The translations under genes and the position numbers were made by a program. The notes beneath the pieces were generated by a model. That model was not told the DNA's origin. It did no database searches and saw only the letters and a list, made by a program, of their open reading frames with translations. Positions 33,232 to 52,533 of a stretch of DNA of 64,000 bases are shown here, piece by piece. Source of the stretch: Chloroflexi bacterium HGW-Chloroflexi-6 (GTDB lineage Bacteria; Chloroflexota; Anaerolineae; Anaerolineales; Villigracilaceae). The stretch is from the NCBI GenBank assembly GCA_002840685.1, contig PHBU01000020.1, positions 471 to 64,470 of the forward strand, given 5' to 3'. How positions within the stretch are numbered: the stretch's first letter is position 1; every line of letters begins with the position of its first letter.

Positions 33232-33248
33232 TCCAGCAGGAGAAGAAC

Positions 33249-36143: not shown

Positions 36144-36145
36144 AG

Positions 36146-36469: not shown

Positions 36470-36809
36470 GACCACGGCCAAGGGTGCTTATCCCACCTTG
36501 CCGATTGCCGCTAATTCACTTGATATCGTTTTTACGGCAGCGGATGTTGCCAACAAAAACGAATTTGTACCCACCGGCAATGATCTGGTTCTGGCTTGGA
36601 ACTCTGGCGCATCTGTGTACACTGCGACTGCGACCAGCGCACCGGACCCGCAGAACCGGACCGGCGACATTGGCGCATATTCAATCGATGCAGGCGAGAT
36701 TGCCCACATGGGCCCCGTGCGCACGCTTGGCTGGGTGCAGCCAGATGGCAAGGTTTACCTGGAAGCCAATAACGCAGCTATCAAATTTGCAGTAATCGCT
36801 TTGCCGTAA
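36447..36809 (+). CDS. Hypothetical structural protein
   Basis: Position upstream of the major tail gene. Confidence 0.45.
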   Translation: MPRTNLPKTTAKGAYPTLPIAANSLDIVFTAADVANKNEFVPTGNDLVLAWNSGASVYTATATSAPDPQNRTGDIGAYSIDAGEIAHMGPVRTLGWVQPDGKVYLEANNAAIKFAVIALP

Positions 36810-36822
36810 GGAGGGCTAAAGC

Positions 36823-37245
36823 ATGACTACTAATGCTATTTCATCTCACGGAACACTTGTAAAAATGGCGGATCGCGCCACCCATGTAACCCTTGCCACG
36901 ATCGCTGAACTGCTCGATATCAAGGGTCCGAAAATTTCAGGTCAGCGCGAAGACGCGACCCACCACGGTTCAGGCGGTTGGGTCGAGAAGATTTCCGTTA
37001 TGAAGGACGGCGGCAAGGTCACCTTTGACTTGCAGTTTGTCGCAGCTGAGGCAACCCACAACAAAACAACTGGCATGGTTGCTGCTGCCCTGGCCCAGAC
37101 CAAGGAAAAGTTTCAGATTGTTTTTCCTGATTCCAGCGGTTTCGAATTTTGGGCTTACGTGGATACCGAATTCGAAGCCAAGGTCAAAGGCAAGCTGACC
37201 GCTTCGATCGAGCTGGACATCACCGGCGCATTGACCCCGCTGTAG
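36823..37245 (+). CDS. Major tail protein
   Basis: 140 aa, directly upstream of the frameshifted chaperone pair and the tape measure gene. Confidence 0.65.
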   Translation: MTTNAISSHGTLVKMADRATHVTLATIAELLDIKGPKISGQREDATHHGSGGWVEKISVMKDGGKVTFDLQFVAAEATHNKTTGMVAAALAQTKEKFQIVFPDSSGFEFWAYVDTEFEAKVKGKLTASIELDITGALTPL

Positions 37246-37255
37246 GAGAAAGATC

Positions 37256-37669
37256 ATGCCAAAAAATTACCTGACAAAAGAACAAATCCTTGCCGCGGAT
37301 GATTCTGCCTTTGAGGATGTATCCGTGCCGGAATGGGGCGGAACTGTGCGTGTGCGCCGTTTGAGCGCTGCCGAGAAGGATGCCTTCGAAGCTTCACTGA
37401 CGATCATCCATCAGCAGGGTGGGACTGTTGTGCAAAAGCCGAACATGGTCAATGTGCGCGCCAAGTTGGCGGTGCGCTGCATTGTGGATGAAAACGGCGA
37501 GCGCATCTTCGAAGAAAACGAAATCGCCGATCTGGGGCGCAAGTCTGGGGCGGCCCTGGACCGAGTTGTTGCTGCGGCCAAACGCCTGAACCGGATGAGC
37601 GAGGCAGACTTGCAGGAGATGGTGCAGGGCCTAAAAAACGACCAACCCGCCGCTTCGCCTACCGCCTAG
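37256..37669 (+). CDS. Tail assembly chaperone (gpG-like)
   Basis: Position before the tape measure gene. An in-frame slippery heptamer lies near its 3' end. Confidence 0.7.
   Translation: MPKNYLTKEQILAADDSAFEDVSVPEWGGTVRVRRLSAAEKDAFEASLTIIHQQGGTVVQKPNMVNVRAKLAVRCIVDENGERIFEENEIADLGRKSGAALDRVVAAAKRLNRMSEADLQEMVQGLKNDQPAASPTA
37633..37639 (+). promoter_or_regulatory. -1 programmed ribosomal frameshift site A_AAA_AAC
   Basis: In-frame X_XXY_YYZ heptamer (codons CTA AAA AAC). The -1 frame is open from here into the 37675-37995 ORF. Confidence 0.7.
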
Positions 37670-37674
37670 CGACT

Positions 37675-37995
37675 GTGGCGGGCCGTTTGGATGTTGATGG
37701 CATATTGGCCGAACTTAGCGTAGAACAACTGCGCGAATGGGAGGCCTACGCCATTCTGGAGCCTTTCGGGGCTCCGTGGAAACAAACCGCACTACTGGCC
37801 ATGTTGCTGGCCAATGCGAACCGAGATCCGGATGCCAAGCCTGAACCATACGAAATGTCAGATTTCCTGCCTGCCGAATCGAATGTGCTCGTTGTAGATG
37901 GTGAAAGCGAACCGGAAGAAGAAGAGCCGCATTGGATGAAGATGAAACGCGTTCTGCAAGTACTGGCTGATGCGAAGAAAGAAAACAGATCATGA
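37675..37995 (+). CDS. Frameshift extension of the tail assembly chaperone (gpT-like part of a G-T fusion)
   Basis: It lies in the -1 frame relative to 37256-37669, with no stops between the slippery site and this ORF. No convincing independent start or SD. Confidence 0.6.
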   Translation: MAGRLDVDGILAELSVEQLREWEAYAILEPFGAPWKQTALLAMLLANANRDPDAKPEPYEMSDFLPAESNVLVVDGESEPEEEEPHWMKMKRVLQVLADAKKENRS

Positions 37996-40175: not shown

Positions 40176-41500
40176 TCTACGAAGCTCGCATTGTATGCGC
40201 TGATCTATCTCCAAGCACGACCTGGCTGTCTGAAGACTCGTCCGGAGGCAGCAGTCAGCTCAAACTGACAAAATATATCCCGACTGCTATGGGGCAGGAA
40301 AATGCACCTGTGGCAGAAACCCTGGATGTGCTTGGCAGCTTTTCAGCAATTCGAACCGCTATTGATGGCCTGGAGCAATGTTTTGGGGTGGCGCGAGACG
40401 AAAAGAACAAACGTGTTTATCTCGAAGTCCGGGTCAATGAGTCGGACTGGTATCGCACTCGCGTTCATGATGGCATTGCCCAAATAGGCCCGGCTCCGTT
40501 TTGGCACAACTCTGACTATGCGCGCTTGCAAGTTTTTGTAAAGCGCGAGTTTGGCTGGGAAGGGCCTGAAGCAGAGTTGGCCCTGACCAACGCCAGCGGC
40601 AGCGGGACCGGTGGGCGGGTTGTTGGCAACGAGAATTACAGTACGACCGAGAACTGGGTAACGGTATCTGGGGCGGCTGTGCTGGGCGATCTGCCAGCGC
40701 GCACCAGGCTGGAACTGACCCACACATATGCCACCAATCCTTTCATCCGCGAGATCTGGCTGCATCACAAGGTCGATTCGCCGGCGTCGTTTGTTCATTT
40801 CATTCAGGGCGAGGCCGCTACTGGCGGTGTAAACACCGCGGATGCCAATGCCAGCGGTGGCAGCAAGAAATCCGTTTCCTGGGCGGTGACAACCAAAACA
40901 AAGCTGCTCTCATGGACGCTGAATGCTGCCAGCCTGGATGCGATGGCAGGTGGGCAGGTGCATGCCATGCTCAGGAATGATGGCACAGCCTACACCGATC
41001 TGTACCTGCAATTCCAACTGCGCAACCCGACCGGGTCCACTTTGATCAGCGAGGGGGCCCTGGCCCCAGTTGCTTATGACATTGAGATGTTGGTGCTGGA
41101 TACGATGCAACTGCCACCAGGCGGGATTGTTTCAGGATCGAGCAATTTGCTGTTGGAGCTGTATGGCCAGCGCTTGTCTGCCGGTACACACAACCTGGCT
41201 ATTGATTTTGTGCAACTTTCGCCGGTCGGGCCAGGCAATAGCTGGCAGAAACTGACCTGTATTGGCTCAGGGCTGGCGCTGAACGAAAAGTTGGTTACGG
41301 ACGGCATCAACGAACGCGTGTACCGGGTTGTGGCGGGCGTAAATGTTGCGGACTGGACAACCGAAGGCGGCGGCATCCGTTTGCAGCCAGGCCGCGATCA
41401 GCGGATCTACGTCCTGGGGGCGGAGGTTGGAAACAGCTACCGCCGGCTGCAAACCTATACTGCACGCCTGTACTACCGGCCTCGCCGAAGGAGTCTGTGA
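40172..41500 (+). CDS. Minor/distal tail protein
   Basis: Position after the tape measure gene. Translationally coupled. Confidence 0.5.
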   Translation: MIYEARIVCADLSPSTTWLSEDSSGGSSQLKLTKYIPTAMGQENAPVAETLDVLGSFSAIRTAIDGLEQCFGVARDEKNKRVYLEVRVNESDWYRTRVHDGIAQIGPAPFWHNSDYARLQVFVKREFGWEGPEAELALTNASGSGTGGRVVGNENYSTTENWVTVSGAAVLGDLPARTRLELTHTYATNPFIREIWLHHKVDSPASFVHFIQGEAATGGVNTADANASGGSKKSVSWAVTTKTKLLSWTLNAASLDAMAGGQVHAMLRNDGTAYTDLYLQFQLRNPTGSTLISEGALAPVAYDIEMLVLDTMQLPPGGIVSGSSNLLLELYGQRLSAGTHNLAIDFVQLSPVGPGNSWQKLTCIGSGLALNEKLVTDGINERVYRVVAGVNVADWTTEGGGIRLQPGRDQRIYVLGAEVGNSYRRLQTYTARLYYRPRRRSL

Positions 41501-42561
41501 TGCAAGTTGTCATTTCCAAACGTGACTTTAGCGGGCCGCTGGCCACGCCTTTCGAATGGACAGCTGAGTCTTTTGACTGGTCCATTTATGGCGGGCCAAC
41601 CATTGCCAGCCTGAGCGCACCAGATAATGTCTATCGCTGGGATGCAGCCAAGCTATTGCGCTGCCCGGTAGAGATCCTGGATGACAAGGGAACGCCGGTC
41701 TGGTGGGGCTTTGTGCAGGCAGCTACGATTCCACAGGGTACGCTGGGTGTGGGGATCTCGTTGGACGGCATGTATAACGCGGTGGCTGTAACCTACGCCA
41801 ATATGCCCGCCGGTGCAACGACCCCAAGCGGGCAAAATACGACTGCATGGGCCTTGGCAAATGAGTCGATCAGCGAATATGGCCAGCGCGAGTTGCTCGA
41901 GAACATGTCAGATGGCACAGCCGCGGCAGCTGAGGCCAGGCGAGATCGGATCTTGTCTGAGTATCGCTATCCAAATGCGGTCGTGGCCGCTTTTGGTGGA
42001 GACAGGATCAAGCTTGAACTGCGCGGTTGGTGGGACGTGCTCTCCTGGCGCTACTACGCCAACGGCGGCACAGCCGCAGCAGCCACGCTCGACCAGGCAG
42101 CCGCGATGGTGGCCACATTTACGCCACTGCTGACGGGTGCCCACCTGGCAGCAGTGAGCGGGTTGAGCACAAATCAATTCCGGGACGGACAGACAAACGC
42201 CAAGAGCCAGATCGAGGAGCTGCTTAAGTTAGGCACGAGCAGCGGTGGCCGTTTGGCGGCAATCGTAAACCGGTCGCGGGTATTGCGCATCGATGCGCTG
42301 CCATCTGCCAGCACTCCAGATCTGCGCTTGCGAGAGGATGGAAAACTGGAAAATATCGCCGACCTGGTGCTGGATGCTGCCAGGCTGGATCAGGCTGTGG
42401 GGCGCTGGGCCACGCTCAAATCTGCACCAACTGTGGTGGGCAATTACTCGACAATTCACCCGTTTTTGATCGAGTCTGCGACCTGGCGGACCGGCACCGC
42501 ATCCTACAAGCCGGTAGGGCAGCGGGATGTGTTTTCTATCGGGAAAGATGGAGGATATTAA
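41497..42561 (+). CDS. Tail tip/baseplate-associated protein
   Basis: Position only. Confidence 0.45.
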   Translation: MMQVVISKRDFSGPLATPFEWTAESFDWSIYGGPTIASLSAPDNVYRWDAAKLLRCPVEILDDKGTPVWWGFVQAATIPQGTLGVGISLDGMYNAVAVTYANMPAGATTPSGQNTTAWALANESISEYGQRELLENMSDGTAAAAEARRDRILSEYRYPNAVVAAFGGDRIKLELRGWWDVLSWRYYANGGTAAAATLDQAAAMVATFTPLLTGAHLAAVSGLSTNQFRDGQTNAKSQIEELLKLGTSSGGRLAAIVNRSRVLRIDALPSASTPDLRLREDGKLENIADLVLDAARLDQAVGRWATLKSAPTVVGNYSTIHPFLIESATWRTGTASYKPVGQRDVFSIGKDGGY

Positions 42562-42564
42562 TCA

Positions 42565-44832
42565 ATGAAACGTGAAGATTTAGAGAAATTCAAGAGCACA
42601 ATTCTGGGCTGGATTACATCGGCTGGCGGCGGATCAGGTCCGTTTGCACCGAGCCCGCACGATTTGAACAGCGCGCACCATACAGGGAATATCTCAGATG
42701 CGCAGCACGGCACTCGCACCCAGGCCAATGCCCATGCTCACAATCATTTGAGCGGCGTGACTGCGGATCAGCACCATGCCCAAAGCCATGCCCACAATGG
42801 CGCTGATGGTTCTGGGGTAGTGGCGCATTCCGCCACGACTGGCCGCACCGCAAACGATCACCACAATCAGCAACATACTCTGGCAACAAACGCAGGATTA
42901 GGTGCAGATCACACCATCAGCGGCGCTGCCCTGGGCTGGGTCCTGCGAGCTACCAGCGCTGTCGCGGCGGCCTGGGCGCAGCTCCAGCACAGCGACCTTG
43001 GAGGCGTGACGGCAGATCAACATCATGCCCAGGCCCATGCCATCAGCGGCGCGGATCACACCGGCACGTTGACCGAAGGCCAGTTACCAGCTACGGCGAT
43101 CCTTGAGAGCGATGCCGCAACGGCTGCGCCAACCGTCGTTAGTAACTCGGGCGCAACCGTTGGGACCGCTCTCAAATATGCCAGGGAAGATCATCGCCAC
43201 AATATCTACCAGGCCCTTACAGCAATATGGACCGGGAATCACACATTCCAAGGGCTGCTCAAAACCCGCCATGTCGAGCCTGAGGCGGGCGAACTGTATG
43301 ATATCGGGCTCGCGACAAAACGATACCGCACTCTGCGCGTTGCAGAGCTGGCGGCAACATTATTTTCAAAGGAGCAGATTATGGTATTAGGGAACAAGAT
43401 CATCATAGCCAAAGATGCCGACACGCTGCCGGCAGCCATGACCAACGTGCAAACAACATACAATTTTGGCCGGGCCATGACTCCCAACGACTGGATACAG
43501 ATTACAGCAGAAGACACGGCGGGAAACCCGTCCACCGAATGGCTTAAAGTCGGGACGCTGGTGAGCGGCACGACCTATAACATCACCAGAAATGTGGATG
43601 GATCTGGAGCCAACGCATGGACAGAAGGAACTCCTTACATCGTGATCGGACAAAACGGAGATTACCGAATCGAGCTTTCTGCTGGAGCCAGCGCCAGAAT
43701 TGATGTGATTCGGCAGAGCAATGCTTGGAATGCCTGGGATGTTTTGGCATCGATGAACCAAACCGGTTTTGTGGTGGACGACAACGGGGGAGTTGGTTCG
43801 ATGATGTTTCAGACCGGGGATAACAACCAGGTTATTGCATGGTTTTATTCCTTTATTGCTGGTGGGCTCAACACGGCTTTCGTAAAAACGAATGACGAGC
43901 TTCCAGCGGGGGAAGATGCCGAGATTAACTTTATGGCGGATCGTCGCAAAACTCTGGGCGGAAAAGTAACGGCAAAGTTCGGGGCTGGCTCAACGGAAGC
44001 CATGCCGAGCGCCAGGCCATCTATGAGGATCGGCTCTGAGGCTTCGTATGATGACAATCTTGGAAAAGACCAACACTTCAACTTCGTTCGCTCTGGCGTA
44101 GCTTATCCAATCCAAACGCCTGCCATCAATGCCGACCCGATTGGCAGCCTTTTGTCGATTCCAGGCATGAGGATGGTTTGGCACGGTAACGGGTATATTG
44201 GCAACGCTGCCGCATCATCCCTGATGGACAGGCTAGGCGCAGATCACCACCTGACGCCAAACAATGGTCCTGCAGATGCGCAGTATCAAAACAGCCCATT
44301 CCCACCTATCAACTATACAGATTTAAACGGCACAAACCAATGGTATCACCGTGCCAACGAGGCGGCGTTCAACGATGTCAACTATCTCGATATCTGGGCA
44401 GTAGTGAGCTTTGATGTTCTGCCAACGGCTGGTCAAATCAAAACCATATACCGCAATGGGCAAACCACGCCTAGCTGGATGCTCTATCTGTATGAAACCG
44501 GTGGTCTGGCAAAACTCCAGTTTGAAACATTCTCGTCGGGGGGCGTATCATCCTATTGCCCATCTGGGGCGCTGGCGGCAAACACCCGGTACGTGATCCG
44601 GGCGCAGTTTATCGCATCAACCCTGATGGCGCTGACGGTCAACGGCACGAAAACAACCGGCACGGCAGCTGCCACAATGAGAGCACCCACTGGAAATTTC
44701 GAGCTTGGGCGCATGAATGGTTCGCACTATTTAGATGGCAAGTATTTCGCCGGAGGCCTTGCTGTCAACGCAGCTGGCGAAACTACCTACAACGCTGTTT
44801 TCCACAGCTTACGCGATTACCTGGGTGTATAG
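42565..44832 (+). CDS. Tail fibre / receptor-binding protein with His-rich HxH repeats
   Basis: 755 aa, the last large structural gene. Duplicated motif GVTADQHHAQ(S/A)HA plus additional HxH strings. Confidence 0.65.
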   Translation: MKREDLEKFKSTILGWITSAGGGSGPFAPSPHDLNSAHHTGNISDAQHGTRTQANAHAHNHLSGVTADQHHAQSHAHNGADGSGVVAHSATTGRTANDHHNQQHTLATNAGLGADHTISGAALGWVLRATSAVAAAWAQLQHSDLGGVTADQHHAQAHAISGADHTGTLTEGQLPATAILESDAATAAPTVVSNSGATVGTALKYAREDHRHNIYQALTAIWTGNHTFQGLLKTRHVEPEAGELYDIGLATKRYRTLRVAELAATLFSKEQIMVLGNKIIIAKDADTLPAAMTNVQTTYNFGRAMTPNDWIQITAEDTAGNPSTEWLKVGTLVSGTTYNITRNVDGSGANAWTEGTPYIVIGQNGDYRIELSAGASARIDVIRQSNAWNAWDVLASMNQTGFVVDDNGGVGSMMFQTGDNNQVIAWFYSFIAGGLNTAFVKTNDELPAGEDAEINFMADRRKTLGGKVTAKFGAGSTEAMPSARPSMRIGSEASYDDNLGKDQHFNFVRSGVAYPIQTPAINADPIGSLLSIPGMRMVWHGNGYIGNAAASSLMDRLGADHHLTPNNGPADAQYQNSPFPPINYTDLNGTNQWYHRANEAAFNDVNYLDIWAVVSFDVLPTAGQIKTIYRNGQTTPSWMLYLYETGGLAKLQFETFSSGGVSSYCPSGALAANTRYVIRAQFIASTLMALTVNGTKTTGTAAATMRAPTGNFELGRMNGSHYLDGKYFAGGLAVNAAGETTYNAVFHSLRDYLGV

Positions 44833-44833
44833 C

Positions 44834-44971
44834 ATGAAACTTGGCGATATTATCTATCTTCCGCTGATCATCCTGTTTGCTATCGGCGGCGTTGCTTTGG
44901 CGTACCTGGAACGGCAGTCGGGGCGATGGGTAGCAGCTGAAGCACCTGTAAGAAAGATGGAATACGATTAG
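44834..44971 (+). CDS. Small single-TM protein
   Basis: 45 aa with the TM segment IIYLPLIILFAIGGVALAYL. The ATG lies 2 nt after the fibre stop. Confidence 0.45.
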   Translation: MKLGDIIYLPLIILFAIGGVALAYLERQSGRWVAAEAPVRKMEYD

Positions 44972-45004
44972 AATTGGCCAGCAGTTCACAAGGCGTGATT
45001 GATT

Positions 45005-45050
45005 AATGTACAGATATGCCGATAGGATACGGTGGGCATATCTGTACATT
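45005..45050. terminator. Perfect 16-bp inverted repeat closing the structural operon (no clear U-tract)
   Basis: AATGTACAGATATGCC-N14-GGCATATCTGTACATT. Confidence 0.45.
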
Positions 45051-45155
45051 AATAGTAGAACAAAAAACAGAACGATATATTAGAAATATTTTAAATTTGG
45101 AATCGAGTTGATTGCTAAGTTATAATAAATTTAGTTATATTACTGGAGGACCAGT

Positions 45156-45341
45156 ATGGAAAAAATAATAGATGAATCAAAAGCGCTAGAAAAGAAAATC
45201 GATGATTTTCTTCAATCAAATCCGGGGGCAAAAAAGGCACTTGATATTTTTGGTATAGCAGATGAGCGTTATCGCGCTGCTTTACAATCAAAAAATTCAG
45301 TCCGTTTCTACACAACCAATACAACATCTCCACAAAAATAA
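45156..45341 (+). CDS. Small hypothetical protein (AT-rich cargo)
   Basis: 61 aa. SD GGAGG lies before the ATG. Upstream of the protease gene. Confidence 0.45.
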   Translation: MEKIIDESKALEKKIDDFLQSNPGAKKALDIFGIADERYRAALQSKNSVRFYTTNTTSPQK

Positions 45342-45353
45342 AAGGGTGAAAAG

Positions 45354-46304
45354 ATGGAAAGCTGGCTTGATATACAGCGGGAATTTGAAATAGCCGGACA
45401 GCAAAGGGGTGTTCCCATTGATTTTGATAGTGTACGGCGCTCTTCTTATAGCGAATTAGTGGCCATCACTGGGAGGCCGCTGATTGTTTATGCATCATCT
45501 TTTCATGTACCCATAAAAAACCAAATTGCAGGAGCGATGCTTTCTCTTGACCTGTCCGATAAGGATGGTTTTCAAGAGGTCATACAGAATATTGATAGTC
45601 AATCTGTAGATATCTGGCTCCATAGTCCAGGCGGTTCAGCTGAAGCAACGGAGTCTATAGTTGCGATGCTTAGGGCCAAGTTTACAGATGTGAGGTTTAT
45701 CATAACCGGTACAGCAAAAAGCGCGGCCACAATGCTGGCCATGTCGGGGAATAGTATTTTGATGTCCAGCGCCGGCGAGCTTGGCCCTACAGATCCGCAG
45801 CTTTTTGTTGGTACTCGTTTTGCGCCTGCGGGAGCGATACTTGACCAGTTCAATATGGCCAAAGATGAAATTGCTCAAAATCCTAACCTTATTGGGCCTT
45901 GGTTGCCTATAATGCAGCAATTTGGTCCGTCGTTGCTTGTTGAATGCAATAATTACATCAATTTATCTAAAAAGCTTGTTTCTGGCTGGCTAGAAAATTA
46001 TATGTTTGCTGGGCAGGTAGATGCAAAAGAGAAGTCAGAGAGATTGGCTGAGTTTCTGGCTAATGATAAAAATTTCTTCTCACATGGTCGGCGCGTAGCT
46101 GCGGCGGACTTACAAGCATATAATGCTAATATTTCTAGGGTTGAAGATTGTTCCCAGGAAGTACAAAGGGCTATTTCTCGGGTTCATCTAACAATTATGG
46201 CTACACTTGATCAATCAAGTGCTGTGAAATTGTTTGAGAATAGCTCTGGTGGCGTTTTTATAAGAATGGTTCAGGCTCAGCCAGGCAATATGCCCATGGC
46301 CTAG
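45354..46304 (+). CDS. ClpP/SppA-fold serine protease (SDH, serine dehydrogenase proteinase-like)
   Basis: IWLHSPGGSAEATESIVAMLR and GTAKSAATMLAMSGN match the ClpP/SppA-type nucleophile region. Confidence 0.6.
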   Translation: MESWLDIQREFEIAGQQRGVPIDFDSVRRSSYSELVAITGRPLIVYASSFHVPIKNQIAGAMLSLDLSDKDGFQEVIQNIDSQSVDIWLHSPGGSAEATESIVAMLRAKFTDVRFIITGTAKSAATMLAMSGNSILMSSAGELGPTDPQLFVGTRFAPAGAILDQFNMAKDEIAQNPNLIGPWLPIMQQFGPSLLVECNNYINLSKKLVSGWLENYMFAGQVDAKEKSERLAEFLANDKNFFSHGRRVAAADLQAYNANISRVEDCSQEVQRAISRVHLTIMATLDQSSAVKLFENSSGGVFIRMVQAQPGNMPMA

Positions 46305-46384
46305 CTTTTGAACTGCCTGCGTAGGTAGCGACCCGATATCAGCATCTTATTGCATGCATATGTTGGTATCTGAGAGAGATACAT

Positions 46385-46548
46385 GGTAGGGAGACTGTGT
46401 CAAGCCGTTGCCAACAGGCTTTTACTAACTCTAGCTTGCTAGAGTCAGAAATACCCCGTGAAAACGGGGTATTTTTATTTCTGGTGTTGGGCGCCGGGCC
46501 TTGCGTGATGATCTAATCTTTGCTTTCATTCACCACTATATCGGTGCC
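46385..46548 (+). repeat. Cassette repeat copy 1 (right part only), which is the prophage attR
   Basis: GGGAGACTGTGT (46389-46400) and the core at 46410-46422, followed by about 125 nt nearly identical to copies 2-5. Confidence 0.85.
46449..46480 (+). terminator. Intrinsic terminator inside repeat copy 1
   Basis: ATACCCCG-tgaaaa-CGGGGTAT followed by TTTTTATTT. A-rich on the 5' side, so possibly bidirectional. Confidence 0.8.
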
Positions 46549-46573
46549 CGCTTTTGACCGTGTTATTTTTGCG

Positions 46574-47920
46574 CTAGGGTATTTCCCAATCCATCCAGTC
46601 TACTATACCGTAATAAAATACGTCGCCTGATAAATGCAAATAGTTGTTCATGCTTTTGCCATCAGGTAATTTGTAAATTGTTTTGGTTGATATATCCAAA
46701 ATTAAGGTCCGCCAGTCATAATCCGCGGTTCCTGATGTAGAAGTTGTATGGGGTGGATAGGATAAAGTTAGAACAATGTGTTCGCTATCGAAGGACCAAT
46801 CAAATTCATAAGCACCTGGCGGCTCAATACCACTAACTGGCAGGCATGGATTTAATAAGATCTTATCGACATCATCCCAAATAAACAATTCCGGTATAGA
46901 CAGGCGATCCGGCTTTTGAATTTTGAAAGCCATATAACGTTTGTCGGATGACCATTGTGGGTGGAAGTTAAGTATGTATCCTGGTTGAAAGACATCTTCA
47001 AAACGTGTGAATTGTGTGATCGTGCCATCCAAGGAGATATTATAAAAATTCTGTGATTTTTTGTTGTTATTTGATGTCCCAATATAAGTGAGCGAATTGG
47101 CATCGGGTTTCCAAGTCGGCATATAAGGTTTTTCGTCGCCTGTACCCAATACTTTGTCTGATTCCGGCAAAGTCCATTTGATCTGACTGGAGCGTAAATC
47201 CAATAAACTATAAGCGTTCTTCCCATCAATCAAGGTTGAACGATACAGCACAAAATTGCCATCTGGGCTATAGGAAATATCCGCGCCCCAAACTCCACCT
47301 GCATAATCAAAGGTAAATTTGGGCAGGAATACTGAATGGCTTTCTATTTGTTCACCGGTTTCTCGGTCATAAATATAGTATGTATCCGTATATCCAACAC
47401 CTTTTTGGTAAATTTCATTATCTGCAGGAGCTTTGAATATGCTAGCAAAAGGCGCTGCAAGAATTTGTCCATTGAGCAGAGAATTCAGATCATAGTTTCC
47501 TGCGGGAAGGTCGAGGGTAACTGACGGTTTCTCAGGGGATATCAGCACAATTCTATTTTCGGTATGGAAGGGTATGAAGGTTTTATCATCAGATGGAACG
47601 CTATAGTTCATACCTGTATCGGCTACCAAATTGGCGTTAAAAGAATTGATATCCCAATAAAAATATCCGGGATGATTACCATGTCTAATAATAAGACTTC
47701 CCTCAATGTTATTCCCTGCTTGCAATAGCTTTGTTGGCCAGCAGGATAAGCTCGTTTTAAAAGGAAATGTCGTTTGTAAAGCATTCTGCTGGGGCATCAT
47801 AGTTGCTTGTGGCGTAATTTTAGTTTGAATGGGAGCAGCTTCTGGATAAGCAACGCAGCCAAATAATACTAAGATTATCAGTCCCGCAAATAACCGAACA
47901 TAACATTTAGCTTTGATCAT
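46574..47920 (-). CDS. Cassette 1: lipoprotein with PD40/TolB-like beta-propeller repeats
   Basis: Signal peptide with lipobox LFGC. Repeated motifs YSPDGNFVLY, WKPDANSLTY and WSSDKRYMAF. Confidence 0.65.
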   Translation of the reverse strand: MIKAKCYVRLFAGLIILVLFGCVAYPEAAPIQTKITPQATMMPQQNALQTTFPFKTSLSCWPTKLLQAGNNIEGSLIIRHGNHPGYFYWDINSFNANLVADTGMNYSVPSDDKTFIPFHTENRIVLISPEKPSVTLDLPAGNYDLNSLLNGQILAAPFASIFKAPADNEIYQKGVGYTDTYYIYDRETGEQIESHSVFLPKFTFDYAGGVWGADISYSPDGNFVLYRSTLIDGKNAYSLLDLRSSQIKWTLPESDKVLGTGDEKPYMPTWKPDANSLTYIGTSNNNKKSQNFYNISLDGTITQFTRFEDVFQPGYILNFHPQWSSDKRYMAFKIQKPDRLSIPELFIWDDVDKILLNPCLPVSGIEPPGAYEFDWSFDSEHIVLTLSYPPHTTSTSGTADYDWRTLILDISTKTIYKLPDGKSMNNYLHLSGDVFYYGIVDWMDWEIP

Positions 47921-47957
47921 ATATAATTCTTAATTCGTGATGTGTTGAAGGAGCGTG

Positions 47958-48310
47958 CCAACCAGGTGTTTACCCGCCACTTTGCCGGTATCTTGGCCGC
48001 CTAAAATGCGAGATTATTGTATTTATTCGCAAGGTTGCATATTGTAGCTATATTCTAGCTGAAAAAATGCTATAAAGCAGGATTTTTCGCCGGTAGTTTT
48101 AGCGGTAAAATCGGGAAAAGTGGTGTGACGCAAGGGCGAGCATGGAATTGGGAGATTGTGTCAAGCCGTTGCCAACAGGCTTTTACTAACTCTAGCTTGC
48201 TAGAGTCAGAAATACCCCGTGAAAACGGGGTATTTTTATTTCTGGTGTTGGCACGGGCCTTGCGTGATGGTTTAATCTTTGCTTTCATTTACCACTGCAT
48301 ATATTGGTGG
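47958..48310 (+). repeat. Cassette repeat copy 2
   Basis: Aligns with copies 3-5 along its length, with a short deletion in the left part. Half-site at 48150-48161 and core at 48171-48183. Confidence 0.85.
48210..48241 (+). terminator. Intrinsic terminator inside repeat copy 2
   Basis: Same hairpin and T-tract as copy 1. Confidence 0.8.
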
Positions 48311-48404
48311 ACCGCAAAACCCCACATTGAGACGAAAACAGGGTGGGGAGAAATGTCTCTGGATGGGGAATCTGATAAACAGCGGTTTCAAAACCTTCAC
48401 CAAG

Positions 48405-48446
48405 AAAAAAGGCCTGACATCTTTTTCCAGATGCGAGGCCTTTTTC
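48405..48446. terminator. Hairpin downstream of the cassette 2 gene (A/T-flanked, possibly bidirectional)
   Basis: AAAAAGGCCT-N20-AGGCCTTTTT. Confidence 0.45.
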
Positions 48447-48512
48447 ATTCACTTTTTCGTTCATCCCTTGACGTGGCTATTAATCGGTGGGCTACGTGGC
48501 TTTACGAGATCA

Positions 48513-49043
48513 TTATTCTTGGAAAGCACTCACACTCCATCGACTGTGACTTACCGGTACCATAGTAATGTAGCACGCGGCGCCATTATCAAACGTGATC
48601 CACCAATCCCGTGCGCCAAAAAAGGAATCCTTACCTGTAATGCTGTACTCTAGAGAAATATTTTTGTCTAATTGAGCTAAGCCGTCATCTGATATTGAGA
48701 ATCTCTCAGGCATATTTTGGCTGGCAACGGCAGAAATGAACTCATCCAATGTTCTTTCGGCTACCCAATCCCTGTAACCCCAATAGAGGTAAGTAGAAAA
48801 TATGGAAAAGACGATCGTCAGAATTGGAACGAGAAGGACAGTCCGCCCTTTCCAATGCAGCGTAATGCACAAAAAGATGAATGCTATTAAGAGCCAAATG
48901 ACGATGACTACTGGAAAAATCAGGTCATGATGACCGTATGCAACAAAGAAACTTAGCCCGACAACTAGCCACAGTGCTAATCCGAGCAACAGAATGGGTT
49001 TCAGAACCTTAGAATCATTTTGCTGTATGAATTGGTTGTACAT
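48513..49043 (-). CDS. Cassette 2: 4-TM membrane protein with a C-terminal soluble domain
   Basis: I prefer the start MYNQF at 49043, because the longer track ORF runs into the repeat. Four hydrophobic segments. Confidence 0.55.
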   Translation of the reverse strand: MYNQFIQQNDSKVLKPILLLGLALWLVVGLSFFVAYGHHDLIFPVVIVIWLLIAFIFLCITLHWKGRTVLLVPILTIVFSIFSTYLYWGYRDWVAERTLDEFISAVASQNMPERFSISDDGLAQLDKNISLEYSITGKDSFFGARDWWITFDNGAACYITMVPVSHSRWSVSAFQE

Positions 49044-49102
49044 TTGCTTGACTATCCATAGTGTAAACGTTTTTTGCTGGAGCACATTCGTTTTAGCGCA
49101 GC

Positions 49103-49475
49103 TCAACTATGTGTTTAGCGGCTATTTCGCCGGTTAATGGCTTATGGGCGGTATTTTGACCGGCTAAAATCCAAAATTAATGCAGGCATTTGTATTCCTG
49201 CGCAAGGTTAATAATTGTAGCTTTATTTTAGCTGAATAAATGCTACAAAGCAGGATTTCCCGCTGGTAGTTTTGGCTGCAAAATCGGAAAAAGTGGTGTG
49301 GCACAAGTGCGAGCATAGGATTGGGAGATTGTGTCAAGCCGTCGCCAACAGGCTTTTACTAACTCTAGCTTGCTAGAGTCAGAAATACCCCGTGAAAACG
49401 GGGTATTTTTATTTCTGGCGTTGGGCGGGTCTTGCATGATGGTTTAATCTTTGCTTTCATTTACCACTGCTTATG
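49103..49475 (+). repeat. Cassette repeat copy 3
   Basis: Core at 49344-49356. Left and right parts align with copies 4 and 5. Confidence 0.85.
49383..49414 (+). terminator. Intrinsic terminator inside repeat copy 3
   Basis: Same hairpin and T-tract. Confidence 0.8.
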
Positions 49476-49490
49476 CGGGTGATCGCATTT

Positions 49491-50045
49491 TCAATAATTG
49501 AAATGTTCTGGAAAAAGTTTCTTATGAAACTCTCTAAGAGCTTGTTGATCGCTGCTTCCTAATGGATTGTAGATTTCACCTTTATATCGTGTCCACCAAT
49601 AACCGTCTCGGAACGGATAACAAAAAATTGGTTTGCCTAACTGTTCGTAAAGCGAATTATCCACAACGCACTCTATTTCTAAACGCTTCTCTCCATTATG
49701 TAATGTTTCAACCCACTCCGGCAATTCAGACATTGTGATGTTTTCAGCTTCCCAGGCAATACGAGCAAAGCGGAAATCTGGGGCAAACTTGAGATGATAA
49801 TAAAGTTGAAGTCCAACTTCTGTACTATCTATGGCGTCTTGAATAGTTCTAATGCCAAACCCACTTAATCCTGAAGAGGATATTCTTGCGCCAAAGAGGC
49901 TGGGCGGCTTTTTGATAACTTCCACGTACAGTATTATTTCTTTTCCTGCGGGTAAATTGAATTTTACTCTATCAAAGTGATGAACAAACTGAGCAAGAGC
50001 TTGCTCATCTTTGCACTCTGCCCACAACTCGAAAATAATAGCCAC
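49491..50045 (-). CDS. Cassette 3: cytoplasmic protein of unknown function
   Basis: GTG start with SD AAAGGA. No signal peptide and no recognised motifs. Confidence 0.55.
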   Translation of the reverse strand: MAIIFELWAECKDEQALAQFVHHFDRVKFNLPAGKEIILYVEVIKKPPSLFGARISSSGLSGFGIRTIQDAIDSTEVGLQLYYHLKFAPDFRFARIAWEAENITMSELPEWVETLHNGEKRLEIECVVDNSLYEQLGKPIFCYPFRDGYWWTRYKGEIYNPLGSSDQQALREFHKKLFPEHFNY

Positions 50046-50078
50046 AATAATCCTTTTGATTGTTTCAAGGCTTCAGAG

Positions 50079-50470
50079 CCCAACTATGTGTTTAGTGGCC
50101 ATTCCGCCGGTTAATGGCTTATGGACGGTATTTTGACCGGTTAAAATCCAAAATTAATGCAGGCGTTTGTATTCCTGCGCAAGGTTACTATTTGTAGCTT
50201 TATTTTAGCTGAAAAATGCTATAAAGCAGGATTTCCCGCTGGCGGTTTTGGCTGTAAAATCGGGAAAAATGGCGTGGTACACGTGCGAGCATAGAATTGG
50301 GAGATTGTGTCAAGCCATCGCCAACAGGCTTTTACTAACTCTAGCTTGCTAGAGTCAGAAATACCCCGTGAAAACGGGGTATTTTTATTTCTGGTGCTGG
50401 GCGTGGGCCTTGTGTGATGATCTAATCTTTGCTTTCATTCACCACTGCATATATCGGTGCATATATCGGT
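50079..50470 (+). repeat. Cassette repeat copy 4
   Basis: Core at 50320-50332. It ends with a 12-nt tandem duplication, GCATATATCGGT x2 (50447-50470). Confidence 0.85.
50359..50390 (+). terminator. Intrinsic terminator inside repeat copy 4
   Basis: Same hairpin and T-tract. Confidence 0.8.
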
Positions 50471-50495
50471 AGGCGCGTTTTCTGTTTATAAGGTC

Positions 50496-51575
50496 TCATG
50501 GGGTAAGAAGCCCATGTAAATCTTGTTGAATTGCTAACATATACTCAGATGCTTTATCTGGTGGAAAATATTCGTTCAGAACATCTTGAGCGTCTGATTT
50601 TTGTCCTATCAGCAAATAATGGGCTGTTAGTGCATAAAGTGTACTTACAGCCTGTCCATATTCCCAGTTTGTTTCCTTATTATATTGATCAATCTCTTTG
50701 TCGTCTTCACTTGGGTTGTTTATATCCCATTTTACGCTCTGAAAATGAAATGGCATATTTGGATGTTGCTTTTTAAATTTAGCGAGAAGGTCCAGTGATT
50801 CTTTAGCGTCAAAAAACTGTAGTTTGTCCTTGAAATTATAAGTTGCTGGTACATAACCAGCCTTTCCTTGATATTCATATACAATACGCATACCTACCTG
50901 GCAGGTCAAACAAAATTGCGACCAAATTCTAGTTTGAGCAATATATTCAAGAGACCCATCTTCGTTTAAATCGGTAAACATTCCTGGGTCTTGACTTCCA
51001 GCAGACATTATTTTTTCCAGCGTATCACCTGCTTCGTAAACAATAGTTCCTGCTCCACCATCGCCTGCGCCAGTCCATGTGCCGATAACAATTTCTGGAA
51101 TTCCATTTCCCGTTAAATCAGCTCCTGTTTCTTCTCTTAGCCAAGCAGTACCATAACCCCAAATTTCTGCTTGCTTGGTATTTTTTGATGCAATTATGAC
51201 AGCACAAGATGCCAAAAGCCTAACTTGTGGGTCACTATCACACCAATTTCTCACTACATATTTTCCTACATACAATTCATGAAATGTAATATCTTGTCTC
51301 TGGGGTTCAGGGGTGAAGTTCAACCAACAACCATCTACTCCACATGTAGGAACTACCATAATTTCAGGTGTCGGGTATCCATAAAGAGTTTCTGGCGTTG
51401 GCGTTACCCAAGGAATTGGCGTTGACGTTGGTGTGCTGGTTGCTGTTGGAGATGATATTGTTGGAATGACAAAAGTTGGCGATACCGTCAGTTGCGTTGG
51501 GTAAGGCGTAACGCCGCCACAGGCGGTTAGAAAGATGGCGCAGATGAGTATTGGTAACGTGATTTTTGTTTTCAT
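50496..51575 (-). CDS. Cassette 4: lipoprotein with a T/P-rich linker and FG-GAP/VCBS-like repeats
   Basis: Lipobox LTAC. Linker SPTATSTPTSTPIP. Motifs DLTGNGIPEIVIGTW and FTDLNEDGSLEY. Confidence 0.65.
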   Translation of the reverse strand: MKTKITLPILICAIFLTACGGVTPYPTQLTVSPTFVIPTISSPTATSTPTSTPIPWVTPTPETLYGYPTPEIMVVPTCGVDGCWLNFTPEPQRQDITFHELYVGKYVVRNWCDSDPQVRLLASCAVIIASKNTKQAEIWGYGTAWLREETGADLTGNGIPEIVIGTWTGAGDGGAGTIVYEAGDTLEKIMSAGSQDPGMFTDLNEDGSLEYIAQTRIWSQFCLTCQVGMRIVYEYQGKAGYVPATYNFKDKLQFFDAKESLDLLAKFKKQHPNMPFHFQSVKWDINNPSEDDKEIDQYNKETNWEYGQAVSTLYALTAHYLLIGQKSDAQDVLNEYFPPDKASEYMLAIQQDLHGLLTP

Positions 51576-51592
51576 GTATTTTCGGCGAAGCG

Positions 51593-51972
51593 CCTAACTA
51601 TGTGTTTACCCGCCATTTTGCGGGTTAATAGCTTATGGGCGGTATTTCGACCGCCTAAAACCCGAAATCATTGTGGGCATTCGTATTCCTGCGCAAGGTT
51701 ACTATTTGTAGCTATATTCTAGCTGAATAAATGCTACAAAGCAGAATTTCCCACTGGTAGTTTTGGCTGCAAAATCGGAAAAAGTGGTGTGGCACAAGCG
51801 CGAGCATAGAATTGGGAGATTGTGTCAAGCCGTCGCCAACAGGCTTTTACTAACTCTAGCTTGCTAGAGTCAGAAATACCCCGTGAAAACGGGGTATTTT
51901 TATTTCTGGTGTTGGGCGGGCCTTGCGTGATGATCTAATCTTTGTTTTCATTCACCACTGCATATATCGGTA
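51593..51972 (+). repeat. Cassette repeat copy 5
   Basis: Core at 51835-51847. Full-length alignment with copies 3 and 4. Confidence 0.85.
51874..51905 (+). terminator. Intrinsic terminator inside repeat copy 5
   Basis: Same hairpin and T-tract. Confidence 0.8.
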
Positions 51973-52087
51973 GCCCGCTTTCTATGAAACTGTTGCGTCC
52001 AGAAAACAAGAATATCATTTCCACGCTGAATATTTTGATTCGCGACAAATGTCCCAAAGAAGGTGAATGATAGATCAGGCCTCACAG

Positions 52088-52315
52088 TTATATTATCTCT
52101 TGAAATTCCCAATATAGCTCTTGGTCTTCGGGAAAGAGCAGTATGTTTTGACAGTTGTTACAAGTGAGTAAGGTCAGGTAATCAACAGACATGCGCCACT
52201 TGCTCTCGATTCGTGCTACTTGTTTGCGAAAACTCTTTCCATTGCAAAGTGGGCATACAAGGGACCTTTTACCATTCCTATCGGTTAAGGTGGTATCGTT
52301 AGATGAAAATGTCAT
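52088..52315 (-). CDS. Cassette 5: small zinc-ribbon protein
   Basis: CPLCNG...CNNCQN. Confidence 0.5.
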   Translation of the reverse strand: MTFSSNDTTLTDRNGKRSLVCPLCNGKSFRKQVARIESKWRMSVDYLTLLTCNNCQNILLFPEDQELYWEFQEII

Positions 52316-52474
52316 TTTGCGTTCCCTTTCAATTTAGGATTATATCTTTGTTTTTGCCATTATTTCCGGGATTGGCATTTTAGATCCACTGTGAGCCGCC
52401 CACTTGGCGCGTAACCGGTTTTTGGCTTTATTCAAGAAGTGACCCTATACGCGAGGATTTGGAAGACTTGCTAG

Positions 52475-52512
52475 GTTGTTTCAAACCATAGCCAACAGGC
52501 TTTTACTAACTC
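52475..52512 (+). repeat. Degenerate sixth att-like copy abutting unique chromosome
   Basis: TGTTTCAAACCATA-GCCAACAGGCTTT-TACTAACTCT. Only about 40 nt are shared with the other copies, and downstream sequence is unique. Confidence 0.7.
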
Positions 52513-52533
52513 TGGTAGATGATGTTTGTTGCT

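Follow-up and report, generated by a model that had tools for sequence, protein, structure and literature searches.

How does an uncultured groundwater Chloroflexi (Anaerolineales-like) bacterium come to carry, behind a 5S rRNA gene, a prophage followed by five tiny one-gene DNA cassettes that have no recombinase of their own? To address this question, we analyzed a 64,000-nt stretch of contig PHBU01000020.1 (hereafter the window), beginning with the repeats that bound the cassettes. The 13-mer GCCAACAGGCTTT, which lies inside and just past the 3′ end of the 5S gene, recurs six times further along the window, always on the + strand and with 0 mismatches, whereas shuffled sequences gave a mean of 0.12 matches and 0 of 100 shuffles reached 7. 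Repeat analysis around this core revealed a 105-nt family with 5 copies at 96-100% identity (46389-46493 and its register mates), a 300-nt family with 4 copies (copies 2-5), a 62-nt right-hand family with 5 copies, and a 50-nt family with 6 copies, including copy 6 at 86%. Copies 2-5 share a unit of 360-390 nt. BLASTN of unit 5 against the whole window found only these copies, with 370-385 nt at 86-92% for copies 2-4, 171 nt at 94% for copy 1, and 50 nt at 84% for copy 6. The half-site, the core, TACTAACTCT, a CTCTAGC/GCTAGAG hairpin and a 13-bp-stem terminator were all present in the block. The array set out in the preliminary description is therefore real.

Exactly one substantial ORF lies between consecutive copies, always on the minus strand. 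The five ORFs are unrelated, and none has a recombinase domain or any significant Pfam or PHROG family; the labels given to them earlier (PD40 lipoprotein, 4-TM protein, cytoplasmic protein, FG-GAP lipoprotein and zinc-ribbon protein) were only partly supported (Table 1). Because the genes are on the minus strand, the roughly 230 conserved nt previously described as the left part of the repeat lie upstream of each gene, as a putative promoter/leader region, and the 70 nt described as the right part lie downstream of the stop codon of the cassette gene to their right. Read from the 5S side, one element thus comprises a right-arm half-site with a small hairpin (beta), a strong two-way terminator (T1), a GTTGGGC/GCCCAAC box and about 70 nt (Z), one low-GC gene on the minus strand, about 230 nt of conserved gene-upstream DNA (A) that ends in GTTRRRY just before the gene, and a phage-type P arm.

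Considering that the window is a short-read MEGAHIT k141 contig of a metagenome-assembled genome (MAG), and that k=31 Logan contigs of the same run break at every repeat, exactly at the invariant block, we asked whether strain variants or dispersed copies of a repeat could have been chained into a false tandem array. The breaks are as expected for this block, and the longest exact repeat between any two copies is 99 nt, below 141, so that the order is resolvable. Moreover, each unique segment of ~1-1.7 kb is bounded by repeats on both sides in independent unitigs (one of them corresponding to 46508-48186), a database record from a MAG named HGW-Chloroflexi-6 also places the cassette-1 gene on a 72-kb contig, and comparable arrays occur in three unrelated assemblies. 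An assembly artefact is thus very unlikely.

Next, we examined the attachment site. The prophage is bounded by the same core, and its large serine recombinase (LSR), which has Resolvase, Recombinase and Zn-ribbon domains, is encoded next to the 5S junction. Joining the two ends of the prophage gives the near-palindrome GGGAGACTGTGTCAAGCC-GTTGCCAACA-GGCTTTACACAATCTCCC. In two other metagenomes, LSRs of the same family, 91% identical in contig L046 and 64% identical in contig L048, abut a 5S 3′ end, and in two relatives, L047 and L049, LSRs of 63% and 68% identity lie next to intact palindromic attP sites of the same geometry. The GGGAGA motif starts 16 nt from GCC in all four 5S genes but 21 nt from GCC in all phage and cassette P arms, which is the 5-bp zinc-ribbon-domain (ZD) motif shift between attB and attP described for LSRs (PMC3783163). 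The cassette P arms differ from the prophage P arm at only 1-3 of 21 positions, while the DNA to the left of the arm is unrelated. These results support the earlier proposal that the repeats carry a phage-type LSR attachment site. Every element next to a 5S gene brings a terminator, as had also been proposed.

To determine whether the backbone occurs elsewhere, we searched public sequences and found it in only three other contigs, at 73-98% identity: the phage contig L042 and two contigs of Anaerolineae-class MAGs, L044 and L045. A-P-core and core-beta-T1-Z occur there with entirely different cargo, about 18 distinct genes in all, and the L045 array lies directly behind a 5S gene. L042 is a related phage, since its tail-region protein is 48-50% identical to window 42565-44832, and its right end carries a cassette array headed by A-P. 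Within the window beta-T1-Z is 95-96% identical, compared with 98% to L044 and 95% to L045, and A-P of copy 3 is 92.4% identical to L042 but 91.5% and 89.6% identical to copies 4 and 5. Copies in the array are therefore no closer to each other than to copies elsewhere, which argues for independent acquisition. The units are also compositionally foreign, the cassette genes having 40-43% GC against 57.6% for the chromosome.

These comparisons bear on the possibility that the array is not mobile now, but is a graveyard of successive prophage or element ends or an in-situ tandem amplification, kept uniform by homologous recombination and gene conversion across the 400-nt repeats, with genes swapped by homologous recombination with incoming DNA. 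The perfectly identical stretches of 75-99 nt in all copies could reflect gene conversion, repeats of 400 nt at 86-92% identity are adequate substrates for RecA, copy 6 is degenerate, and no circular forms have been observed. In addition, L044 and L045 contain 'empty' elements (alpha-T2-P) made only of the LSR-proximal phage end (P′ arm and terminator T2, as next to the LSR in L048) joined to a P arm, which are most simply deletion remnants of prophages. However, these decayed prophages, which kept both att arms, are also the situation defined for cis-mobilizable elements (CIMEs; PMC5704250), and they count in favor of the site-specific accretion described below as well. We consider this explanation unlikely, because copies within the array are no more alike than copies from other metagenomes, the five unrelated genes are uniformly low in GC, and the variable segments are trimmed almost exactly to single ORFs between fixed boundaries, which repeated independent prophage decay would not produce. 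The near-identical block is also conserved at 95-98% in MAGs whose 5S genes differ from this one by 4%.

Table 1. Features of the 5S-proximal region, in window coordinates
Positions	Strand	Feature	Support
213..329	+	5S rRNA gene; its last bases carry the B half-site (GGGAGAGTAGGTCATC) and the start of the core	Rfam RF00001, 105.3 bits; spacing of the GGGAGA motif
323..335	+	Core copy 0, the attL crossover region of the prophage	
336..396	+	Prophage P′ arm (ACACAATCTCCC), a small hairpin and an intrinsic terminator that now ends the rRNA operon	Sequence; the fold has a 12-bp GC-rich stem followed by UUUUC, z = -5.5; same arrangement in L046
405..1925	-	Large serine recombinase, 506 aa	Pfam Resolvase + Recombinase + Zn_ribbon_recom; weak NCBIfam matches to XisF and CcrB/CcrC; homologues next to 5S genes or attP sites
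336..46409	.	Prophage, the most 5S-proximal element	Terminase at 27224-28858; capsid at 33249-34406; HTH repressor at 12640-13059; bounded by core copies at 323 and 46410
46389..46556	+	Repeat copy 1, the prophage attR: phage P arm (46389-46409), core (46410-46422), beta arm with hairpin, terminator T1 (46447-46476), GTTGGGC box, 70-nt Z part	
46574..47920	-	Cassette 1 ORF, 448 aa, a predicted beta-propeller with an N-terminal signal-like helix	Model pLDDT 82, best PDB matches TolB/DPP4 propellers; GC 0.40
47956..48315	+	Repeat copy 2: A region starting with TGCCAAC, P arm (48150-48170), core (48171-48183), beta, T1 (48208-48237), GTTGGCA (48247-48253), Z	
48513..49043	-	Cassette 2 ORF, a predicted membrane protein, 176 aa from the ATG at 49043	The mechanical ORF listing runs to 49106 and overlaps the repeat
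49101..49487	+	Repeat copy 3: A from GCTCAAC, P arm 49323-49343, core 49344-49356, T1 49381-49410, Z	
49491..50045	-	Cassette 3 ORF, 184 aa, no family	
50078..50470	+	Repeat copy 4: A from GCCCAAC, P arm 50299-50319, core 50320-50332, T1 50357-50386, Z with a duplicated GCATATATCGGT	
50496..51575	-	Cassette 4 ORF, 359 aa, with a lipoprotein-like N-terminus (LTAC)	FG-GAP only at E = 0.11 (Pfam)
51592..51978	+	Repeat copy 5: A from GCCTAAC, P arm 51814-51834, core 51835-51847, T1 51872-51901, Z	
52088..52315	-	Cassette 5 ORF, 75 aa, with two CxxC pairs	Weak zinc-ribbon matches only
52464..52513	+	Copy 6: degenerate P arm (GCTAGGTTGTTTCAAACCATA), core (52491-52503) and TACTAACTCT, followed by unique chromosome with its own terminator-like hairpin	Same P* variant (..TCAAACCATT) in L044 and L045

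Taken together, the best explanation, to which we assign a probability of about 0.6, is that five small integrative elements encoding no recombinase have accreted one after another at the attachment site of a phage-type LSR in the last bases of the 5S gene. In circular form each element would carry the site P-core-beta, and recombination would follow the rule (5S arm)-core-X x P-core-Y -> (5S arm)-core-Y + P-core-X. In this view, every arrival would land next to the 5S gene, supply the rRNA operon with a new terminator, re-create a usable target and push older elements away; the 46-kb prophage would be the latest arrival and bring the only recombinase; and the cassettes would depend on that enzyme, or a relative, in trans. 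They may also travel with the phage when excision uses a distal P-core site instead of the phage's own (cis-mobilization). The anatomy, the phage insertion at this core, the 5S specificity and attP geometry of the LSR family, the foreign composition and the recurrence of the backbone in other genomes with other cargo rest directly on the analysis. By contrast, circular intermediates, action of the 405-1925 recombinase on these sites in trans, insertion order, phage-assisted transfer and promoter activity of A are inferred from sequence alone, only one sample containing this genome and no read-level evidence existing for circles, empty sites or alternative junctions. The sites also do not fit the canonical rule that LSRs do not recombine attL or attR-like sites without a directionality factor: every right arm, including the one left at the chromosomal end, has attP-type spacing (22-24 nt) and no B′-type arm is recognizable, so that the 5S-proximal target is formally B + P′-type and looks like an attL rather than a true attB (PMC3783163). 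The earlier reading of the units as serially stacked, trans-dependent cassettes is thus supported in part. Recombinase-less tandem elements at an LSR site are not unprecedented, as shown by ccr-less psiSCC elements and CIMEs. The present array resembles such SCC composite islands or CIMEs in miniature, with one gene per element, and looks like an integron-like way of collecting foreign genes that depends on a phage enzyme.

A link to integrons, which the preliminary description missed, suggested an alternative in which the array is an integron-type cassette array without a nearby integron integrase (a CALIN). A tyrosine recombinase would then exchange the genes at the GTTRRRY boxes, and the 400-nt repeat would be a composite spacer, a truncated attC 5′ end plus an attI-like array head, that happens to contain the phage attachment site because the array head sits next to the phage attP. 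The repeat units end in complementary RYYYAAC/GTTRRRY boxes, and in gene orientation conservation stops at GTTGAGC, GTTGGGC or GTTAGGC right before each ORF, while a GCCCAAC-ACC box identical to the start of canonical attC sites lies next to T1. Unit 2 shows two compensatory changes between boxes about 290 nt apart (TGCCAAC/GTTGGCA), suggesting that the repeat unit, rather than the core-bounded element, can behave as one unit. Canonical attC cassettes sit in the same arrays in L042 and L044: in L042, A-GTTGGGC is followed by cassettes, three of which are followed by ~130-nt sites whose ends pair like attC sites (duplex -25 to -34 kcal/mol; 0-4% of shuffles do as well), and in L044 four attC-like sites are interleaved with two repeat units in one co-oriented array. 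The window prophage has an attC-like site at 11099-11236 and a Xer-like tyrosine recombinase at 14039-14968 that is conserved in the related phages L047 and L048, and integrons and attC sites in phages have been reported (PMC9892861). Nevertheless, we regard this alternative as doubtful. The ends of the window repeat units do not pair beyond chance (15-42% of shuffles do as well), so they are not foldable attC sites; the tyrosine recombinase scores 47.5 bits on the integron-integrase model against a cut-off of 265, and scores better as XerC-like; and no integrase lies at either end of the array. Each gene has its own conserved upstream region and terminator, unlike promoterless integron cassettes, and the units are bounded by the LSR core that the phage demonstrably used. 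Finally, the GTTRRRY box before a gene matches the box after the same gene less well (4-7 of 7) than the two boxes of one repeat unit match each other (6-7 of 7), which is the opposite of what G|TT exchange would produce.

The 13-mer GCCAACAGGCTTT lies across the end of the 5S rRNA gene identified by Rfam, and it recurs six more times in the window. All copies are direct and exact, so that seven core copies in direct orientation start in the 5S gene, whereas none of 100 shuffles gave as many matches. Repeat finding and alignment revealed a 105-nt block that is 96-100% identical in copies 1-5, a 360-390-nt unit in copies 2-5 that is 86-92% identical by BLASTN, and a 50-nt remnant at copy 6. The block contains the half-site, the core, TACTAACTCT, a CTCTAGC/GCTAGAG hairpin and a terminator with a 13-bp stem that folds strongly on both strands. 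A single ORF, always on the minus strand, lies between consecutive copies, and none of these ORFs has a recombinase domain or any significant family. The observation made in the preliminary description is thus confirmed. An assembly artefact is very unlikely. The window comes from a MAG contig (GCA_017973775.1, which is the same as an ENA MEGAHIT k141 contig) of a Horonobe deep groundwater sample, and the longest exact repeat between copies is 99 nt, so k = 141 can order them. Logan k=31 contigs break at the invariant block, as expected, and a database record from a MAG named HGW-Chloroflexi-6 also places the cassette-1 gene on a 72-kb contig.

Coordinates of the features analyzed in the window and in three other contigs
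Sequence	Position	Strand	Feature
Window	213-329		5S rRNA gene (Rfam)
Window	323-335		Core, copy across the 5S end
Window	336-46409		Prophage
Window	405-1925		Large serine recombinase (LSR), 506 aa
Window	2174-9482	-	Putative restriction or defence module
Window	9717-12031	-	Three ORFs without any family (295, 126 and 251 aa)
Window	11099-11236		attC-like site of ~138 nt
Window	14039-14968	+	Xer-like tyrosine recombinase, 309 aa
Window	42565-44832		Prophage protein 48-50% identical to the 670-aa protein of L042
Window	45000-46304		Last prophage genes (61-aa ORF; ClpP/SDH-type serine protease-like protein, 316 aa)
Window	46410 (start)		Core, copy 1
Window	47956-47962		TGCCAAC box, left end of repeat unit 2
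Window	48171 (start)		Core, copy 2
Window	48247-48253		GTTGGCA box of repeat unit 2, after the terminator
Window	49205-49250 and register mates		Nested palindrome in the A region
Window	49344 (start)		Core, copy 3
Window	50320 (start)		Core, copy 4
Window	50446-50469		Tandem duplication of GCATATATCGGT in the Z part of copy 4
Window	51835 (start)		Core, copy 5
Window	52491 (start)		Core, copy 6
L044	5560-5665 and 625-720		'Empty' elements
L045	3790-3880 and 2084-2160		'Empty' elements
L041	1900-2100		Region of an Rhs-core-like peptide

The left neighbour of the array is a prophage that encodes a terminase, a capsid protein, an HTH repressor and, at the 5S junction, an LSR with resolvase, recombinase and zinc-ribbon domains (Pfam PF00239, PF07508 and PF13408). 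Immediately after the LSR gene lie a ResIII/SWI2-SNF2 helicase-like protein (984 aa), an N6/N4 DNA methyltransferase (864 aa) and a methyltransferase + AlbA_2/SLFN protein (534 aa), which together look like a phage-borne restriction or defence module. The last prophage genes, at the other end, are as GC-poor (0.41) as the cassettes, unlike the rest of the prophage, so they look like acquired cargo next to the left (P) arm of the attachment site. The DNA after the 5S core reads ACACAATCTCCC, followed by a small hairpin and a terminator, and the DNA before core copy 1 reads GGGAGACTGTGTCAAGCCGTT. Joined, the two ends form a near-perfect palindrome, as expected of an LSR attP, which is a pseudo-palindrome of about 50 bp.

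To determine whether homologous LSRs occur in the same setting, we examined them in their own contigs. A 91%-identical LSR (contig L046) abuts a complete 5S gene through the same core, and a 64%-identical LSR (contig L048) does the same, while LSRs of 63% and 68% identity (contigs L047 and L049) sit next to intact palindromic attP sites. The LSR searched as a single protein against viral contigs gave only one distant relative, at 21% identity, and among cultured phages (INPHARED) it is at most 24% identical to any integrase and the repeat has no match. Tabulating all sites, we found that the GGGAGA motif starts 16 nt before GCC in all four 5S genes and 21 nt before GCC in every phage or cassette P arm. 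A 5-bp shift of the outer (ZD) motif, toward the centre in attB relative to attP half-sites, has been described by Rutherford et al. (PMC3783163). The cassette left arms are therefore genuine attP-type arms of this integrase family. In the right half, however, all arms, including the one left at the chromosomal end (copy 6), have attP-type spacing of 22-24 nt, and no B'-type arm was identified. The proximal target is therefore formally attL-like, and characterized LSRs do not use such sites without a directionality factor (PMC3783163).

Because the genes are on the minus strand, the unit is best read in gene orientation. A stop codon is followed by about 70 nt (Z, beginning ..CACCGATATATGCA), a GCCCAAC-ACC box, terminator T1, the hairpin arm (beta), the core, the P arm, about 230 nt (A) with a nested palindrome and two short hairpins, and then GTTGAGC, GTTGGGC or GTTAGGC. 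The next start codon follows 19-60 nt after that last box. Each gene therefore has its own conserved upstream region and its own terminator. The cassette genes are 40-43% GC, compared to 57.6% for the flanking chromosome and 50% for the prophage. The cassette 1 protein is modelled confidently as a beta-propeller resembling TolB and DPP4 propellers, while the other four proteins remain without a family. The nested perfect palindrome in A (TTTGTAGC ..AGCT-N9-AGCT.. GCTACAAA in gene orientation) is conserved in all copies and in two other contigs, L042 and L044, and may be a protein-binding or operator site. A sigma-70 promoter scan of the array gave no more sites than shuffles did, so promoter activity of A is an inference, and a consensus fold of A gave little covariation (3 of 46 pairs had double changes), which does not support a structured RNA. 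The 24-30-codon frames in A do not encode a small protein, because the start codon is lost in copy 5. Rfam, at gathering and at E-value thresholds, found no known RNA in the repeats, only sub-threshold terminator-like hits to BSnc120.

To determine whether the backbone occurs elsewhere, we scanned public collections. An exact 23-mer (core + TACTAACTCT) gave no hit in GTDB representative genomes or JGI metagenomes, whereas a degenerate P-arm + core pattern found three further contigs, L042, L044 and L045. Among viral contigs, the P arm + core pattern found only L042, an A-region pattern found only L042 again, and a degenerate right-arm pattern and the T1 and Z patterns found none. A chimeric pseudo-peptide made of three reading frames across the repeat, designed to catch spurious ORF calls over other copies, found only the window's own ORF among 5.8 billion proteins. 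L042, a 24-kb IMG/VR contig, carries core-P-A at about 90% identity, followed by a different 112-aa gene and by further cassettes, three of them each followed by a ~130-nt site whose ends pair like those of integron attC sites. The 670-aa protein next to that array is homologous to a protein of the window prophage. L042 is therefore a related phage whose right end carries a cassette array headed by A-P, although by synteny this contig cannot reach the LSR end. L044, a whole 6-kb contig of an Anaerolineae MAG, has two repeat units with five co-oriented genes and four attC-like sites between them, the cargo comprising an alpha/beta hydrolase, a DSP-phosphatase, an AlkZ-related protein, a deaminase and a CN-hydrolase. 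L045, the end of a 76-kb contig of an Anaerolineales MAG, shows a two-gene array directly behind a partial 5S gene. No cargo gene is shared between any of the four arrays.

The identity values argue against in-situ duplication with concerted evolution and for independent acquisition from a shared pool. The beta-T1-Z segment is 95-96% identical within the window, 98% identical to L044 and 95% identical to L045, while A-P of copy 3 is 92.4% identical to L042 but 91.5% and 89.6% identical to copies 4 and 5. For comparison, the 5S genes of the window and L045 are 95.7% identical over 70 nt. We consider it unlikely that the array consists of immobile relics or is a product of homologous recombination. 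The Z part of copy 4 carries a tandem duplication of GCATATATCGGT that is also present in both units of L044, where the motif opens two attC-like spacers. The preliminary description had named dispersal of the repeat at unrelated loci, as a REP/MITE-type repeat, as an observation that would count against it. Within the 64-kb window the unit occurs only in the array, and in the public collections it was found only in comparable arrays; seven-bp inverted boxes exist, but there is no target duplication.

Every junction seen in the window, L042, L044 and L045 can be written as (left arm)-core-(right arm). The left arm is either the 5S end (once, proximal) or a P arm, and the right arm is one of several interchangeable types (phage P', alpha, alpha2 or beta), each built of a half-site, a small hairpin and a terminator. 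The alpha module with its terminator T2 is the LSR-proximal end of the phage in L048. In L044 and L045 it occurs joined directly to a P arm, in 'empty' elements of about 90-100 nt that consist only of a phage-type P' arm, T2 and a P arm. Two sequence variants of these are shared by the two MAGs, which come from different studies. They are too small to be plausible free circles, so they are probably prophage deletion remnants, reduced to two att arms and a terminator, that have been copied along with their neighbours.

All arrangements follow from one rule, whereby 5S-core-X x P-core-Y gives 5S-core-Y plus P-core-X. In this view insertion would always occur next to the 5S gene and the prophage would be the last arrival, which is the stacking model of the preliminary description in a slightly more general form. 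We therefore favor LSR-dependent accretion of recombinase-less cassettes, with a probability of about 0.6. The array contains no recombinase, every unit has a P arm and a beta arm, and the LSR is encoded by the adjacent prophage. The architecture and its recurrence at independent loci with other genes, in different genomes rather than in strains of one species, are established by the analysis. By contrast, the action of the LSR on these particular sites, excision or circularization of the cassettes alone or with the helper, and the order of insertion are inferred from sequence, the Logan unitigs showing only breaks at the repeats. The interpretation put forward in the preliminary description is thus partly supported: it is largely right in architecture, but unproven in mechanism and incomplete, because it misses a link to integrons.

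This link rests on several features that the core-bounded element does not explain cleanly. The repeat units are flanked by complementary 7-bp boxes. Unit 2 carries TGCCAAC and GTTGGCA, which are two compensatory changes about 290 nt apart relative to the consensus pair GCCCAAC/GTTGGGC, whereas units 3-5 show single uncompensated or wobble mismatches, hinting that the repeat unit itself can behave as one entity. These boxes, the GTTRRRY boundary before the ORFs and the attC sites interleaved in sister arrays point to integron-type recombination, at least for cargo exchange. Co-orientation and GTTRRRY boundaries are present in 3 of 4 units. Inside the prophage, three co-oriented ORFs without any family sit between the defence-like genes and the repressor, together with a site belonging to the same sequence family as the attC-like sites of L042 and L044 (GGCTAGC-ACCGCGTGTACCGGACAAG ... 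CCAGTCC-GTTGGGC), whose end pairing is degraded. A joint alignment and consensus fold of seven attC-like sites was too poorly aligned to build a covariance model, so we used single folds and an end-pairing test. The ends pair, R''/L'' with L'/R', in the three L042 sites; the result is ambiguous for the prophage site, and in the window repeat units the end-to-end duplex is no better than in shuffles. The only tyrosine recombinase in the window is Xer-like: it scores 47.5 bits against a cut-off of 265 bits on the integron integrase (IntI) model TIGR02249 and matches XerC better, at 126 bits, so it is not an integron integrase by NCBIfam. A counterpart is found at the same relative position in the related phages L047 (293 aa) and L048 (294 aa). 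Moreover, each gene has its own conserved 230-nt upstream region and terminator, whereas integron cassettes are mostly promoterless. A purely integron-type array therefore seems unlikely.

Integron cassette arrays and CALINs, including those reported in phages (PMC4889954; PMC9892861), share with the window co-oriented single-gene units of unknown or accessory function separated by conserved repeats, RYYYAAC/GTTRRRY boxes at the repeat ends, and attC-like sites in the sister arrays and in the prophage. They differ in that the window repeats do not fold as attC sites, no IntI is present in the window, each unit has its own upstream region and terminator, and the unit boundaries coincide with an LSR core that a phage has used.

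Staphylococcal cassette chromosome (SCC) composite islands at the 3' end of rlmH/orfX are likewise integrated by large serine recombinases (Ccr), accept new elements at the gene-proximal site, form tandem stacks bounded by direct repeats of the target 3' end, and include psiSCC elements as small as 2.6 kb that carry no recombinase (PMC9430635). The window LSR gives weak NCBIfam matches to CcrB/CcrC. Here, however, the target is a 5S rRNA gene rather than a protein-coding gene, and the elements are unusual in scale and uniformity, being 1-1.8 kb with a single gene and a conserved ~400-nt backbone (upstream region, predicted two-way terminator and att site). The only recombinase present belongs to a tailed prophage, the host is an uncultured Chloroflexi (Anaerolineales-like) bacterium, and integron-type boxes and attC cassettes are mixed in.

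Cis-mobilizable elements (CIMEs) and site-specific accretion, as in the ICESt1/ICESt3 family and others, involve elements that have lost, or never had, integration genes but keep both att sites, an incoming element integrates into the att site of the resident one, and the composite may excise together (PMC5704250). The 'empty' elements of L044 and L045 fit the definition of decayed elements that retain their att sites. CIMEs are known for tyrosine integrases at tRNA or protein-gene 3' ends and for conjugative elements, whereas here the enzyme is an LSR, the helper would be a phage, and the units are uniform single-gene cassettes rather than random decay products.

The ssrA-specific genomic islands of Dehalococcoides, whose host phylum is also Chloroflexi, lie in tandem downstream of a stable-RNA gene and are each bounded by a direct repeat of its 3' end. 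Their integrase is a CcrB-like serine recombinase, and some islands lack the integration module and were proposed to be cis-mobilizable (PMC3146451). Those islands are several kb to tens of kb, sixteen of them carry their own six-gene integration module, their target is tmRNA, and they have no conserved promoter/terminator backbone and no attC link. A full-text literature search for 5S rRNA together with serine-integrase terms returned no paper on a serine integrase targeting 5S rRNA, although absence from the literature searched is not proof of novelty.

A bolder reading remains possible but tentative, namely that a phage serine integrase drives a cassette-collecting platform that works like an integron but is mechanistically independent of it. 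Self-contained one-gene expression cassettes (upstream region, gene, two-way terminator), each with a complete attP-like site, would stack at the 5S rRNA 3' end because every insertion re-creates the target, and the phage would pick up or drop cassettes by choosing among alternative P-core sites at excision. As the backbone also serves as the head of true attC arrays, two cassette systems, one LSR-based and one integron-type, would exchange cargo between phage and chromosome.

If the mechanism holds, single-gene cassette arrays could be built by serine integrases as well as by integron integrases, and a temperate phage could act as the engine and vehicle for a pool of recombinase-less accessory genes, which would be of clear interest to mobile-element and integrase specialists. 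The 5S rRNA 3' end would join tRNA, tmRNA and rlmH as a stacking site, where each element, like each phage, has to bring a replacement terminator for the rRNA operon. The sites would also break the textbook attP x attB to attL + attR asymmetry, since only the left arms differ, raising the question of how LSR directionality is set and perhaps offering reusable 'landing pad' sites for genome engineering. In practice, 1-2-kb low-GC segments behind rRNA operons in MAGs may be real biology rather than misassembly.

Finally, we examined the contexts of homologues of the cassette-1 protein. Most lie in ordinary or uninformative contexts with no repeat nearby (contigs L008, L032-L040, L009, L010 and L041). 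In L041, an Rhs-core-like peptide (..NRYAYVVNNPLKFTDPSGH..) lies downstream of the closest homologue (58% identity). Some cargo families may therefore belong to polymorphic-toxin or immunity loci, and a DSP-phosphatase domain annotated as part of polymorphic toxin systems also occurs in the L044 cargo, as does an Abi_C domain in the L042 cargo. The one promising contig, of 23,068 nt in JGI sample 3300075153, was not recovered by a second metagenome scan. Judged from its gene layout alone, it has about a dozen co-oriented small genes of 110-480 aa, mostly without families and including two paralogues of the cassette-1 protein, with intergenic gaps of 200-400 nt, and it looks like a long cassette array.
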